64,000 nt of DNA, taken from assembly GCA_026770705.1 (NCBI GenBank), contig JANJGN010000026.1, positions 40,114,001 through 40,178,000 on the forward strand, read 5' to 3'. The translations under genes were made by a program, and so were the position numbers. The notes below the pieces were generated by a model, which saw only the letters and a list, made by a program, of their open reading frames with translations, did not search any database and was not told the origin of the DNA. Position 1 is the first letter of the stretch. Each line of letters begins with the position of its first letter. This DNA is from Isurus oxyrinchus (Eukaryota). This document shows, piece after piece, positions 5,076-50,040 of this stretch.

Positions 5076-5430
5076 GTTACTTGGCGCATCATTGTCTGCG
5101 CCAGCTGAAAAACGAGTCACCCAGTCTAATTCCACTTTCCACTTTAAACTCCTACCACTTTAAATTGATCGCTGAGTTACCAGTTGAAATCAGCAAAATA
5201 TAAAAATGCAATTGCACAAGTGAGACTTGCCTGATTTTGCTAACTGTGGTTTTGTTACTATTTTGGTGGTGGTGGTGGGGATAGGGGGGTGGGTGGGGAG
5301 GGGGGGGGGGCGGTGGGCGGGTTGTGGTGGGGGATATCCCAGATATTCCCACTGTGGAGGCTGTTTGGGAGCTTTGTTTTGTCGGTGTGACAGCGCCCTC
5401 TGGCGAGCACCAACTGCAAACCCCAGTGTT

Positions 5431-5934
5431 GGTTTTTGTGTGGAGTCCGCTTTTCTCTGCAGCAGTGTGGATCTCATGGCACAGAAATACACGGCGGTGT
5501 CAGAGATCACGACCTTACCGATCGGTGATCTTGGCTGTTTTATCGAACGCAGAATTGGTGCGGGCAGCCAAACCTGGGTTGCAGTTTATTATGCCTCCAA
5601 TAATATAAAACATTTTCTGTGGAGGCTCCCCGGGATGCTGACTGTACCAGAGCACAGTAGGATTACCAGCGTTTGTTTTTAAGGTGCAGTTTAGGATGAG
5701 ATTGCCTTCCTCTTCAGCAACCTTTTCAAGAACCGACTGTTCCACTTTGTCTTGGCGGCTCAATTCTAACATAAAATAAGAATAAGAGACATCGATATTG
5801 TTAACATCATCATCATTTCACAAAACAGTGACATCTGGATGAGGGTGTTTCTGGGAATAATGAATTTTTCGTGGGCGTGAACACTTACTGAGAAGGGATA
5901 CAACGATGAGGAGCAGTGTGAGACGGTTCTGCAT
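5431..5934 (-). pseudogene. TCR V pseudogene with intact 23-RSS
   Basis: Leader MQNRLTLLLIVVSLL|GTAAG (5934-5889). V exon 5765-5470 reads ILNCTLK...LWYSQHPGEPP...ITDR* then frameshifted ISDTAVYFCAMR. RSS CACACTG-23-ACAAAAACC at 5469-5431. Confidence 0.88.
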
Positions 5935-9490: not shown

Positions 9491-10089
9491 ATGTCCATCC
9501 TGCTCTCACTCACTTATTAGGGGACTCAGAGCCCTCTTCCAGGGAGATTGTTATCAAACTCCCAGTTCTTTGATGATGGCAGAGACTACAAATTGTCACC
9601 CTCTCCCTCAGAAGGCTTTTCTATGATCCTTATTGCGAGGTAACACATTGTGTCTCAAACGAACAGGAATTGGTGGCACCATCTGTCACTGAAGTGTCGC
9701 TAACAATCAGAACACTTCACTATGCTAAATTGGGCGAAGCTTTGATCCTTTTTCCATCGCTAGTACTTGTCGCCAGGTGCTGCACTGTTCAGTCTGGATA
9801 TTGTCTGTAACATTGTTGGATCCGCCTTGCTACAGTGATAATACAGGTCAATGATACAATGTCCCCTTCTGCAACAGCCGTTGACTGTCATGTTCCATCA
9901 CTGCCAGTTGCATTAGATATAATGTCGCATAATTAGTAAAATATAACGCAACTCCTTATAACATACAACAATAAAATATAAAATAACAAAATACAAGTTG
10001 ATAGAATACAGGAAAATGCAATCCAACAGAATATAGCGTAACTATATTTTATATATATGTACATATATACACATAAATATATTTAGAAC

Positions 10090-18818: not shown

Positions 18819-18857
18819 TGTTTTTGTAGGAGTCTTCCCCTGGTTCCTGTCACTGTG
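18819..18857 (-). other. 23-RSS of V 18858-19360
   Basis: CACAGTG + 23 bp + ACAAAAACA. Confidence 0.93.
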
Positions 18858-19360
18858 TCTTTCAGCCCGCAGTAATACACCGCGCTGTCAGACAGCCGCA
18901 GGTCACGGATGGTGAAATTCCCCTCACTTTTGGAAGTGTCGAGAGATGCAGAAAATCGAGCCCCCACGCCCTCTGCTCTGAAAATATTTCCGTATTTCGG
19001 GATGTAGATCAAGAATGTAGGGGCCTTACCCCGGTCATGACGGTACAGCTGTAAGTAAGGTGCATCAGTAGTGGTCGAATAGCTGTAATGAATGGTCACC
19101 GAGTCTCCTTCAAATTGCATCGCTGTATCTGGTTCCTGTGAGACCGAGCCTGCACCACTAACACCTGCAGCAATTAAAAATAAAGAGCTTTAAGGTTTTA
19201 TTACTTCAGCCCAGTTTATCATGTTGAGTGAGGGATTCTGAATAGAAATAAAACTGAATTGAAACAATGATACCTGCAATAGGAAGATTGTGTAACGTGC
19301 GGACTTACCGGGTAAGAGAGCTGCAGCTGTGAGAAAAGAATAGTAGGTAAAACCCAACAT
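18858..19360 (-). CDS. Open-frame TCR V segment lacking canonical first Cys and core Trp (leader 19360-19309, V exon 19164-18858)
   Basis: MLGFTYYSFLTAAALLP|GTAAG ... CTGCAG|GVSGAGSVSQEPDTAMQFEGDSVTIHYSYSTTTDAPYLQLYRHDRGKAPTFLIYIPKYGNIFRAEGVGARFSASLDTSKSEGNFTIRDLRLSDSAVYYCGLK; no stops. Confidence 0.88.
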
Positions 19361-32316: not shown

Positions 32317-32355
32317 AGTTTTTGTACAGGGGTGAGATTGATTTTCAACACTGTG
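32317..32355 (-). other. 23-RSS of V 32356-32820
   Basis: CACAGTG + 23 bp + ACAAAAACT. Confidence 0.95.
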
Positions 32356-32820
32356 AGTCTGAAAGCGCAGTAATAGACGGCAGCGTCAGTCAGCTGCAGA
32401 CCCGAGATGGTTAAGCTGATAAATTTAGCGGCGGTCAGGAGCCCTGCAGAGAAGCGACTTCTCGCAAATTCTGCCTTTCTTTCATTGTCATTGGTATCCT
32501 TCAACAGTACAAACTGGGGCTCTGTGTCTGGGTGTTGTCGGTACCAGTATAACATATAGCTTCTCCTTGTAGTATCATAGTTACAGTTTAAAGTCACCTC
32601 TTCTCCTTCTGTCTTGACATCTGACGAGAGTAACTGAGTGACAGAGTCCCCATGAGTCCCGTCTGGAAAACAATTTATGAAAACAGAAAGGTTAAGACGA
32701 CAGCTGATTGAAATCTGATTGAAACCATGCCTGGAAAATGAGATAAATATGAAATGTATTCCCTTCACGATTACCTGTCAGAAATGCTGCCCACACAACC
32801 CAGATGCTGAATAGCCGCAT
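32356..32820 (-). CDS. Intact TCR alpha/delta V segment (leader 32820-32775, V exon 32662-32356)
   Basis: MRLFSIWVVWAAFLT|GTAATC ... CCAG|DGTHGDSVTQLLSSDVKTEGEEVTLNCNYDTTRRSYMLYWYRQHPDTEPQFVLLKDTNDNERKAEFARSRFSAGLLTAAKFISLTISGLQLTDAAVYYCAFR. Confidence 0.95.
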
Positions 32821-45170: not shown

Positions 45171-45273
45171 ATGCAAATCAACTTCGATCCCCCTAAAGTA
45201 TTTCAGTCTAGCTCTGAGGCCCGGTCTCCCAGTGCAGTCCAGGACTGCAGTCTCCAGCTCCCCGTCATATAAA
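45171..45273 (+). promoter_or_regulatory. NAR-type V promoter: octamer and TATA box
   Basis: ATGCAAAT 45171-45178; half-CRE CGTCA 45263-45267; TATAAA 45268-45273; ATG 45298. Confidence 0.65.
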
Positions 45274-45297
45274 CCCTCAGCTCCAGGCAGAAGGACG

Positions 45298-45777
45298 ATG
45301 GGAATCCTCCTTGTTTTCACGCTGTGTATCTGTTTACCCCGTGAGTAGCGATCAAACAAACCGACATTGCGTGGATTTAATATAAAGCTGCTCGAGTCAA
45401 TCCCAACTACAGACACTGTCTGGGGTTTTAACCCCGCACTGTGGTTCTCTGATGGTCCATTAAACTCTCTCTGTTTAATTTCCAGGCTTTTTCAGTCAGT
45501 CAGTGACACAGACCCCGGCAGCGGTGACCAGGAAGGAGTGTCGTCAGCCTCTCACCATCACCTGTGTTTTCTCCGGTGCTTCGCGGGATTATTTCCAGAC
45601 GGGATATTTCTTCAGACAAACCCAGACCGGGACAGAGCGGGAGCGGATCTCCAGTGGGGGGAGATTTGTTGTGTCGGTGAATAAAGCACAAAAGACATTT
45701 TCGCTGGAAATTCAGGAATTGAGAGTTGAAGACACCGCCACCTATTACTGTAAAGCTTAGTACCAGTATTACAGATA
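45298..45777 (+). CDS. NAR-TCR variable segment (IgNAR-like V); leader 45298-45340, V exon 45486-45777; in-frame TAG at 45758
   Basis: MGILLVFTLCICLP|GTGAGT ... RFFSQSVTQTPAAVTRKECRQPLTITCVFSGASRDYFQTGYFFRQTQTGTERERISSGGRFVVSVNKAQKTFSLEIQELRVEDTATYYCKA*. VNAR hallmarks: CDR2 deletion, ERIS.GGR, YYCKA; extra FR1 Cys. RSS CACAGTG 45778-45784, 22-bp spacer, ACAAAAACT 45807-45815. Confidence 0.9.
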
Positions 45778-46112
45778 CACAGTGATGGGTCTCAGCTTCC
45801 CACGATACAAAAACTCTCACTGTAGATTATCACAGAAACAAATGAAAGAGCGGAGTTAATCTGCAGTTAAACCCCCACAGTTCCGTGTCACACTGTCTAT
45901 TTTATAATGAGACTGGATTATTGCTGTTAACATCTTGAGTGTGTGTGGATGGTGATGTCTTTCCCGGGATTGGTGTCAGTGAATGGGGATTGGGAATGAT
46001 TGATCCCAGTTAGAAACCCCTAACGCCAGATGTGATCCTGGTCTAACAGCTGGAACCGGGAACCGCTGCCCCCGCTGTTTATGATGTCCCCAAATCTTCG
46101 CAAGTACCCGAG

Positions 46113-46187
46113 GGATTTTCTACTGACTTGTAACACTATGTGGATGGGGTACCTGGAATCACAGTGGGAGAGACCTTAACAAATACC
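46113..46187 (+). other. NAR-TCR D segment (46141-46159) with 12-RSS on both sides
   Basis: GGATTTTCT-12-CACTATG | TGGATGGGGTACCTGGAAT | CACAGTG-12-ACAAATACC; open in all three frames (WMGYLE / GWGTWN / DGVPG). Confidence 0.88.
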
Positions 46188-46493
46188 TCTGCCCAATCAC
46201 AATATAAATTCTCCGCGTCCGGATAGTGAATTGTCGGGTTGATGTTATTATCTCTGGAATCTGATTACAATTCATTGTAATTTCCATTATTCAGTTATCG
46301 TTCTTTGTTGTTCTGCTCGGTTTTTGTGAAGCTATTATCTCGTTCCCGGACCATTTACTCTGAGCTCAGTGCCTTAAAAAGAAGAGTTTGAACTGACAGA
46401 GACTTTGAAAATTGTTTATTTATTTAAATCAGTTGAATAATTGGGCAGTTTCTACTGTCTGATGATGATTTCCCGGCAGGTTAAGGTGTCGGT

Positions 46494-46579
46494 GGTTGTT
46501 GTACCGGGGACACTGAGAGCGGAGTCACTGTGGAAATATTATGTGGATGGATCCGGGACAGTGTTGACTGTTACAGCCG
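46494..46579 (+). CDS. NAR-TCR J segment (46533-46579) with 23-RSS
   Basis: GGTTGTTGT-23-CACTGTG then KYYVDGSGTVLTVTA + G|GTAAGT donor; DGxGTVLTV is IgNAR-like rather than FGxG. Confidence 0.92.
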
Positions 46580-47494
46580 GTAAGTGACTCCATACTCCGC
46601 CGGGTTACAGCCTGTCTCGGGTAATGTTCACCGTCAGTTTATTATTGATATCAGTGGTGTTTGGGGGAGATGTTAGAGTTGACGGAATCTGGACCATTAT
46701 TAGTTCAATGGGCACATCGGGGACACCATCAACACCACGGACTCTCACACTCTGAATCGCTTTTAATGAGCGCAGATTGTCAACACTCAGGACTCCACAC
46801 CCCGTATTAACTGTGACCGAGGCAAATCTATCTGTCACTTAGAGCCCGGGAGCGAGGTCCCAGAGCTTTCTCCTGGGCAGCAGATTGCAGCCTGAGCCGC
46901 ACAATGTGAATGAGGTACCGGGTGAATAAACTCAATACAACTGCGGCCAGTTCGGATACCTGCAGTGGCTCGTTCCAGACCTGACCCGGAAGAAAAACGG
47001 GAAAGTGACACAAGGGGCCTCAGATATATGAGATACTGATGTGAGTCCAGGTTGAATTCTATATTTGGACAATCAGTCACGAAAATTAGTGACATTGTCT
47101 GTGCCATTTCTTTCAATTGCCTTTATAGAACCAATCACTTTCCTCCTTTTCCGTCCTTAAAATGAAATGTGAAAGTTTGGAAATGCAGACACTTCTCTAT
47201 ATTGAATGTAGATGTTTGAGATATGGGGTTGCTGTAATTTATCTGTAATTCTGATTCCTGTGAACTGAAACAGCATAGTGCAGTGAGAAAGTGAGGATGA
47301 TGTATTAATCTTATAAAGGAGAAAAGGGACATAAGGAAACAATTATAAACAAGGAGAATGCTCATTTAGAACCAGCAAGAAAAAAATAATCGAAAGGGAG
47401 AGAACGATTGGACGATTTCTGGGCGATTTTCAAAGTAGTTTCCGACTCGGTGGTAGGTGAGGTTTATGGAGGGAAGGACTGAAATAGACTCCAG

Positions 47495-48040
47495 TCCGGA
47501 ATGCTGTGTAAAGTTTTGGTCCCCTTACAGAAGGGAGATCAATCGTCATTGGAATGAGTGCAACAAAGATTCATCAGACTGATTCGTGAGATGAAGGGAT
47601 TGCCCAATGGGATGAGATTTAGTCGTCTCGGCCTATATTTCTTAGAGTTTAGAAGAATGAGAGGTGATCGCATGAAAACATATAATATTCTGCAGGGACT
47701 TGATAGGGCAGATTCTGTGTCAGTGTCTCCCCAGACTGAGGAGTATATAACTCGGGGTCACAGCTTCAGAATAAAGAGTCATCGATTAGAACTGAGAAGG
47801 AAAATAAATCTTCAATAGAACCACTGTTGTTAATCTGTGGCATTCTGTAACTCAGAGAGCGGTGGGTGTTCATAATCTGTATGCATTCTAGACAACATTC
47901 GATAGGTTTTCGGACACTAAAGGGATCAGGGATATGGGGAGAGTGCGGGAATGTGACGTTGCGGTTGTAAATCAGCCAGGATATTACTGAATGTCTGAGC
48001 AGGTTTGAAAGGTGATATGGTGGCTCCTGCTTCTATTGAT
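47495..48040 (+). mobile_element. CR1-type LINE 3' fragment in the J-V intron
   Basis: VQQRFIRLI...RLGLYFLEFRRMRGD...TRGHSFRI. Confidence 0.85.
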
Positions 48041-49515
48041 TGGATTCTCTGCTTTGGTTTCTTACACTCCTGAGGGAAGAAACAATCATCAACAATCCAC
48101 ATCTCTCTGGGAAGATTGAACAGGCTGGTTCTCTTTTTTCTGGAATACAGAACCACAAGGAGAATCCATATAAATCTTTCAATATTGAACGGGTTTAACC
48201 TGGACAAGTTGAGTCTAAAGCAATAGCTGTCAACACATGATAGTAGCTAACAGAACAGATCAAACATTTAAGACAAATGAATTTAAACAAAGGCAGGTCA
48301 GAATGTGGAACTTGCTGCCTCAGGGAGAGGTTGGAGAAAGTATTGATATATTTATTGGATCACTTGAAAAAAGAGGAGGGAGAATGGAACAGACCAACAC
48401 AGGGAGCTGGATGTAAATGGTCAATTAGATTTCTGGTGGGGTCCGGCTGGAGTTGATTATATACACAGGCTGAATGGCCCATTCCTCTTCCGCATTCTTC
48501 TTCCTCGATAATGTAAAATTGAGAGAAAACTCCGGCCAGAGAACCTGCGACAGAATCAGTTAACGTGCGGAAAGAATTGAAATTGTCAGAGAGCCGGAAG
48601 AGGCAGTTCCCAGTGAGTAACAGTAAAACCACTGCGGAAACTGAACAGACTGAACCCAACCGACAACTGAGAGAGATTGGGACAAGTTCCCACGGTTGCA
48701 AAAAAGGCAACAGCATATAATAAATGTGAAATAAAGGGAATGTGAAATTAAAGAAATAAAATGAAATTAATTGCACCTATTTGATATTAAGCTGAACTGG
48801 AGAAAATAAGACCCTATTGACAGAGCATAATGAAATAGAGCAAAAGGCAGATAGAAATTCCTGAGCAGTTATAAACCGCAGTAAGTGATTGACCTTTCAC
48901 CACGAGAGATGCTCACTCTTGGTTTGGCCCAATCGGTGCGGATGAACCCCATCAGTTTATGTTGGATTTTGCTATGCGCAGTGATGCCACACAGCTGTGT
49001 CCCTCTCTGACAAACATGGTTTTTTTGGAAACTGGTTGCCTTGCTGAACATAAAATACTCCCTCGTGTTTGTTTCTCACCAAGGAAAATAGAAACAGGAA
49101 TGTAATATAATTCATAGAATTATCCAGCACGGAAGGATGATATTCGGCCAATTGTGTTGGCGCTGACCCTTTAAAAGTGCAATATAAATGTTCCCACGGC
49201 CCATGAATTTACTCTAGAGCTCTATATTTGTATTTACATTTCCAATACAGACCCGTTATCCGTTTGAAAGTCACTATTGAATCTATCCCCTACACCAATT
49301 CAGGCAGTGCAGTCCTGATCGGAAGAACTCGCGACGTAAAATAAAACATCACCTCATCCCCCATTTAGTCATATTTTCATAACAGTGAACATGGTTCAAA
49401 TAGGCTTCCAGCAAGTTAAATTACGCAAAAAGCAGAGCTATTCGCGCGATTGACAGATTCTCCTGGACAAACAGTGGCTGAACAAAAAGATAGTGTTCAT
49501 TTTCTTATCCTACAG

Positions 49516-49815
49516 ATTTCAGTTCCATAATTTCCTGGATTTCGCCTCTACAAATGTCTGCTGTCGGTGACACCGTTACTTTAAACTGTGAATATTCAGG
49601 GTTCTGCACAGTACACTGGTACCGTCAGTCCCCAGGACAGGCTCCTGAATATCTTCTTCAGAGACGCACTTCAGGAGAGGAGAATAAAGAAAACGCTGCC
49701 GGGGGGAGAATTTTTGCTTCTATCGATTCTACCGAGAAAATCAGCTGGTTAACGATCTCCGAACTACAACTAAGCGACTCCATTGTTTATTACTGTGAAC
49801 TGAGTCGGTGCACAG
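49516..49815 (+). CDS. Leaderless 'supporting' TCR delta V of NAR-TCR
   Basis: Acceptor CCTACAG ends 49515, phase-compatible with the NAR J donor. DFSSIISWISPLQMSAVGDTVTLNCEYSGFCTVHWYRQSPGQAPEYLLQRRTSGEENKENAAGGRIFASIDSTEKISWLTISELQLSDSIVYYCELSRCT; extra CDR1 Cys; no leader exon found upstream. Confidence 0.9.
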
Positions 49816-50040
49816 CACAGTGATATAGAACACGGAGGGAGCTGTACAAAAACCTCAACATAGTGAGGATTAGAGATACTTAGTGATGCAGAGCACGGAG
49901 AGAGCTGTACAAAAACCATGAACATGTTGGAATTACAGACACACAGTGACACAGAGCACTGAGAGAGCTGTACGAAAACCTGAACATTGTGGGATTACAG
50001 ACACAGTGATACAAGGCACAGAAAGAGTTCAAATAATTGT
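49816..50040 (+). repeat. Tandem array of four 23-RSS units (period 63/63/60 bp)
   Basis: CACAGTG 49816/ACAAAAACC 49846; CTTAGTG 49879/ACAAAAACC 49909; CACAGTG 49942/ACGAAAACC 49972; CACAGTG 50002/nonamer lost. Confidence 0.92.

Follow-up and report, generated by a model that had tools for sequence, protein, structure and literature searches.

Background and related receptors

NAR-TCR is a doubly rearranging T cell receptor (TCR) delta chain of cartilaginous fish, said to have been described by Criscitiello et al. in 2006. Here, we analyse a cassette of this kind in Isurus oxyrinchus (assembly GCA_026770705.1), on the forward strand of contig JANJGN010000026.1 (hereafter C26) at 40,114,001-40,178,000. 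This stretch of 64,000 nucleotides (nt) is called the window, and window positions are counted from its first letter. The cassette adds a new member, likely without function, to a known system, and its genomic surroundings matter more than the cassette itself.

According to the available text of PMC1845163, the hallmarks of NAR-TCR are a leader, a Cys in the a-b loop, absence of the Trp of WYRK, and a leaderless supporting variable (V) segment with a Cys in complementarity-determining region (CDR) 1; "putative interdomain disulfide bridges" were already proposed there. The window cassette shows all of these hallmarks. Taken with the available parts of PMC12227049 and PMC6795676, the likeness extends to a NAR-type V behind the leader, a diversity (D) and a joining (J) segment of its own, a supporting V of the delta type, and a position in the TCR alpha/delta locus. 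The window copy differs in a stop codon in the V and a broken D signal. The family in this genome differs in its size (at least 143 V matches, some of them partial and some perhaps haplotype duplicates) and in having units joined in the germline as VD or VDJ, as well as arrays of several units, neither of which is described in the available parts of the three papers. The ligand binding mode of NAR-TCR is stated as unknown in the accessible text of PMC7615758.

Two other receptors are useful for comparison. IgNAR, with its variable domain VNAR, resembles the cassette in its short V without much of framework region (FR) 2-CDR2, in the 22-nt spacer of its V recombination signal sequence (RSS), and in its J motif. 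It differs in sequence (about 50% identity), has three Ds and constant (C) exons of its own, is a secreted antibody, and lacks a supporting V. TCR mu of marsupials and monotremes likewise has three extracellular domains and a rearranged tip on a supporting V, which is germline-joined and invariant in marsupials, but it is VH-derived, lies in a separate locus, and is described as convergent (available parts of PMC3457774 and PMC7615758). TCR mu (PDB 7k0z) was also the top Foldseek match of an AlphaFold2 model of a relative (predicted local distance difference test, pLDDT, 66; predicted template-modelling score, pTM, 0.41), a weak match (TM-score 0.30) that bears on domain order only.

State of the window copy

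A full list of parts is not a working gene. The first-pass annotation called the cassette complete, and its parts are indeed all present (Table 1), but function is in doubt given a stop in the V and a damaged heptamer 5′ of the D. These lesions were compared across the genome, where the best 150 of 609 candidate NAR Vs were scored and figures are therefore lower bounds; unit counts refer to 62 units, 59 of them on C26, drawn from most of the C26 matches. The in-frame TAG stands three codons past the second Cys (after YYCKA), its first base 20 nt inside the V coding end. Of the 62 units, 6 have TAG directly behind CKA, and most have CAG (Table 1). An assembly error was ruled out because the six TAG copies lie on three contigs.

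The annotated arrangement of a D between two 12-nt-spacer signals holds on the 3′ side, where the RSS is near consensus, and fails on the 5′ side. There, the heptamer is CATAGTG on the signal strand (CACTATG as read), and the third base of the essential CAC is gone. CAC is required for RSS cleavage (PMC9723617, available part). A separate D was found in 24 of 51 non-joined rows, the others being VD-joined, without a J by pattern, or junk; CAC is missing from the 5′ heptamer in the six TAG copies and kept in 18/18 others.

The six TAG units form one clade (SH-aLRT 95-96), with copies 97.5-98.0% identical over 4.66 kb and sisters at 87-91%. The tree was made by a quick method on 90 columns with an outgroup row (W_V32355) that was out of frame and junk, and only the stop clade and the IgNAR branch were used. 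We conclude that the lesions arose once and were then copied by recent duplications. The sister L080 carries CAG, its D heptamer is undamaged, and its frames are open; between it and the window copy, the ratio of non-synonymous to synonymous change (pN/pS) is 0.93 (18 non-synonymous and 6 synonymous). The short CDR1 of the supporting V was ruled out as a killing lesion, since this otherwise intact sister has the same one.

A functional NAR-TCR gene should have a V open to its coding end and a cleavable RSS on both sides of the D, and the window copy falls short on both counts. The cassette, part of the TCR alpha/delta V array, is thus probably a pseudogene, a loss of function suggested by its sequence. 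Several points weigh against this. The leader, splice sites, J, three of the four NAR-side RSSs, and supporting V are intact, six copies have been kept, and the stop sits in the trimmable end of the V. The CAC rule derives from mammalian RAG. The pN/pS value rests on 24 changes, and V genes often have high values anyway. Furthermore, the inverted position of the cassette, 10 Mb from the delta constant region (see below), depends on the assembly of duplicated blocks, which may be imperfect.

A cassette that works, perhaps at low efficiency, is conceivable if the stop is lost through deep trimming of the V and if shark RAG either accepts the changed heptamer or cuts at a cryptic, shifted one. 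All other signals are intact, germline V tails are long here and trimming is routine, and six copies exist. However, trimming of at least 18 nt and cleavage at a heptamer without CAC would both be needed, a heptamer shifted two bases on would lie 14 nt from the nonamer, and all 18 other D calls keep CAC. V trimming of 18 nt is presumably rare, and we consider a working cassette unlikely. Alternatively, only the tip may be dead, and the supporting V may still be of use, whether spliced to a leader or another exon upstream or, with its tandem RSS copies, as a substrate for rearrangement. It is open and has a consensus RSS in the window, L001, L004, and L005, but is not open from the acceptor in the clade copy L002; moreover, no leader lies within 2.9 kb, and a splice from the leader to the supporting V must skip the V exon. 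We give this role very little credence.

As a likely dead copy of a known system, the window cassette carries little weight. It had also been taken, by implication, as a working copy giving reference RSS geometry; with a V stop and a broken D signal it is poorly suited to this, and intact paralogs show the geometry better. No RNA data set was listed as containing the cassette. Contigs matching its exons derived from paralogs, with many differences, and came from shallow contig sets of runs that are RNA by guess, X2 and X3 among them.

Family identity

Pfam V-set scores above the cut-off for both the NAR V and the supporting V, and VNARs as the best PDB sequence matches of the NAR V (E 4e-20), show that neither is a chance reading. 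The shortened CDR2 region noticed earlier was borne out: the canonical Cys-Cys spacing is 62 in the NAR V, whereas the supporting V has 69 and two conventional Vs from the window have 71-72. FR2-CDR2 is short, and the conserved Trp is replaced by Phe (GYFFRQ). The a-b loop Cys was read in 58/62 units and the Phe in 55/62, the rest being unreadable by pattern. The 23-nt-spacer J signal, the phase-1 splice from J to the supporting V, which joins in frame (TVTA-D-FSSII), and both extra Cys codons (TGT in the NAR V, TGC in the supporting V) were found where the first-pass annotation had placed them. The leader was not: the ATG at 45171 meets a stop after 33 codons and was rejected, and the true leader starts further downstream (Table 1). 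A second D near 46320 was also rejected, as the nonamer-like run there has no heptamer and the RSS scan gives no support.

An IgNAR antibody cluster might happen to lie beside an unrelated TCR V, and both the VNAR matches and the Ig heavy-chain clusters interspersed in this array would agree with such an arrangement. However, in this genome the IgNAR Vs (seven matches listed, four of them fetched) are 48-51% identical to the window V and form a long separate branch with support of 100, and the window V groups with NAR-TCR models of other sharks. IgNAR loci here have three D-like segments and C exons, whereas the cassette has one D. No constant exon follows the window J in the 171 kb to the contig end, where all that turned up was more TCR Vs; in an IgNAR locus, this search recovered five constant exons. 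Furthermore, the supporting V stands at a fixed distance in dozens of paralogs. D number, the separate branch, and the missing C exons already refute an IgNAR cluster, to which we assign a negligible chance.

The supporting V is leaderless, as annotated: the 2.9-kb scan from J to the supporting V gave no leader candidate. As a control, the same scan recovered the NAR leader and those of four conventional Vs on the minus strand, and gave no leader for the V near 900 on the plus strand. Membership of the NAR-TCR family is therefore supported. RefSeq two-V proteins were used for homology and linkage only; they were rejected as cDNA evidence, being gene predictions, several of which run through RSS sequence in CDR3.

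Rearrangement and linkage to the delta constant region

In an intact cassette, RAG would join V (22-nt spacer) to D (12/12) to J (23) locally, and the supporting V (23) would join Ddelta (12/23) and Jdelta (12). Splicing from leader to VDJ to supporting V-DJ to Cdelta would then give a delta chain with two V domains, probably tied by a putative disulfide between the a-b loop Cys and the CDR1 Cys. A prediction of the two-domain complex scored 0.06 and gave no answer. The window copy would depend on the deep V trim and non-CAC cleavage described above. Its supporting V could rearrange; without a leader or working tip, a surface chain is unlikely.

The C domain of a RefSeq model finds two Cdelta-like exons, one of them on the minus strand of C26 at 29.90 Mb. 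A Ddelta-Jdelta-Cdelta region occupies C26:29.90-29.93 Mb on this strand, with a 12/23 D and 12-RSS Js ahead of the Cdelta-like exon; the delta label rests on the C domain of the RefSeq model and the D segment. It lies 10.2 Mb from the window cassette, inverted, with RSS spacers compatible with the supporting V, which would join Ddelta by inversion over this distance. Upstream of Cdelta, 27/52 scored units share the orientation of the window cassette. The two Cdelta-like loci (C26, L061-L064; C242, L068-L071) differ in D and J sequences, and represent either divergent haplotypes or a duplicated delta locus.

Expansion and germline joining

Across 17 Mb of the array, the NAR-TCR family is greatly expanded, and its units are interspersed with conventional TCR Vs and clusters of Ig heavy-chain genes. 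NAR-TCR-type sequences make up 143 of the 150 listed matches, some partial, and lie on C26 (23-40 Mb) and on unplaced contigs that are perhaps haplotype duplicates. All three germline states occur: the 59 C26 units comprise 30 unjoined, 13 VD-joined, 3 probably VD-joined, and 13 VDJ-joined units, with two units reassigned by eye. VD-joined units, in which V is fused to D and a 12-RSS faces a 23-RSS J, have intact leaders (L030-L034, L037, L040, L042, L048, L051, L059, L060). On C242 (365-525 kb, L125-L140), tandem repeats of about 21 kb each combine an intact head unit and a single supporting V with two or three internal units that have decayed. Dead NAR Vs L045, L058, L090, and L123 have an expanded G run at the ISSGG motif.

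The VDJ-joined exons keep their phase, 10/13 are open, and all 13 have a CDR3 Cys and an a-b loop Cys. Twelve, spread over nine arrays, follow a head unit with no supporting V intervening and are themselves followed by one (Table 1); the thirteenth is an orphan with a stop. By alignment, leaders are broken in 12/13 joined units and in 5/49 others (Fisher p 3e-8; copies are not independent), with four distinct lesions counted. Among seven distinct open joined exons, pN/pS is 0.41. One leader stop is common to joined exons whose silent-site divergence reaches 0.25, so the frames have likely outlived the leaders. Gene models of white shark (P0004) and horn shark (P0010), which are predictions, chain one NAR unit to another and then to a supporting V. 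In addition, in a 366-nt contig of run X2 (depth 3.1), the J donor of a joined-type VDJ is linked exactly and in frame to the acceptor of a NAR V. The contig is 92-94% like the compared locus and hence derives from paralogs or alleles. Its order, joined unit before head-type V, is explained equally well by a linear tandem, a back-spliced circle, or a path switch in the assembler, and none of the fetched units matches all nine of its diagnostic sites (best 7/9).

It is therefore possible, although short of probable, that some arrays encode delta chains with at least three Vs, namely a rearranged tip, a leaderless invariant joined VDJ exon, and the supporting Vdelta with Cdelta. This concerns the paralogs, not the window cassette. 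In such a chain, the a-b loop Cys of the tip would pair with the fixed Cys in CDR3 of the joined exon, a role that the CDR1 Cys of the supporting V is predicted to play in the two-V form. The chain would be one V longer than any form described in the available text of the cited literature; it would have a longer receptor stalk and would offer a parallel to marsupial TCR mu, in which the supporting V is likewise germline-joined.

Several findings argue against a third V. The internal units on C242 have lost their leaders or their frames and look decayed, which implies that internal position alone brings decay and that head Js must skip such exons. One joined unit retains a formally intact leader, and models P0009, P0011, and P0026 place intact leaders before joined exons, either borrowed from the head or real. 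No description of joined or three-V NAR-TCR was found in the available text of the literature searched (including PMC5931798 and PMC3149040), which is weak evidence of absence; primary papers may already report joined units, copy number, D number, or RSS geometry. A search of the elephant shark supplement (PMC3964593) gave 0 matches.

As a separate observation, in a contig of run X3 a short exon lying upstream (L014:3809-3864) is spliced to the acceptor of a joined-type V at 2656, possibly as a sterile transcript.

Anatomy of the cassette and neighbouring features

Table 1. Parts of the window cassette, with the positions of joined paralogs
Feature	Position	Strand	Remark
NAR V leader exon, 43 nt, phase 1	45298..45340	+	donor GTGAGT at 45341
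NAR-TCR V exon	45486..45777	+	a-b loop Cys at 45539, then 3-nt insertion
In-frame TAG in NAR V, likely inactivating	45758..45760	+	CAG in 47/62 scored units
NAR V RSS, spacer 22	45778..45815	+	RSS scan
D 5′ RSS, spacer 12, heptamer without CAC triplet, likely inactive	46113..46140	-	
Single D, 19 nt	46141..46159	+	
D 3′ RSS, spacer 12, near-consensus	46160..46187	+	RSS scan
J RSS, spacer 23	46494..46532	-	
NAR J, reads KYYVDGSGTVLTVTA	46533..46579	+	phase-1 donor GTAAGT at 46580
Leaderless supporting Vdelta exon, open; CDR1 Cys (TGC) at 49605	49516..49815	+	acceptor at 49516
Supporting-V RSS, spacer 23, consensus	49816..49854	+	RSS scan
Two more RSS-unit copies, 63-nt period	49879..49980	+	copy at 49942 is a near-consensus 23-RSS
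Joined exons behind head unit	C26 25-39 Mb		L009, L011-L012, L014-L015, L017, L019, L024, L026, L041, L043, L044

The CDR1 of the supporting V is two residues shorter than in most paralogs. The repeat of its RSS spans 49816-50010 and is present in sister L080 too. In the intron between J and the supporting V, repeat fragments of high contig depth, which we take to be LINE-like, lie at 47450-48400.

L117 and L120 (C26:39.977-39.991 Mb) mark a VH-D-D-J cluster with four constant exons, presumably IgM-like, inside the TCR V array, and a C1-set search found dozens of similar constant exons at C26 24-40 Mb. The window also holds six conventional TCR Vs in mixed orientation, one on the plus strand (650-970) and five on the minus strand (2000-2370, 5430-5800, 9610-9980, 18820-19190, and 32320-32690). 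The plus-strand V and that with its RSS at 18857 are without the first Cys, those at 5469 and 9652 are broken, and those at 2036 and 32355 look open.

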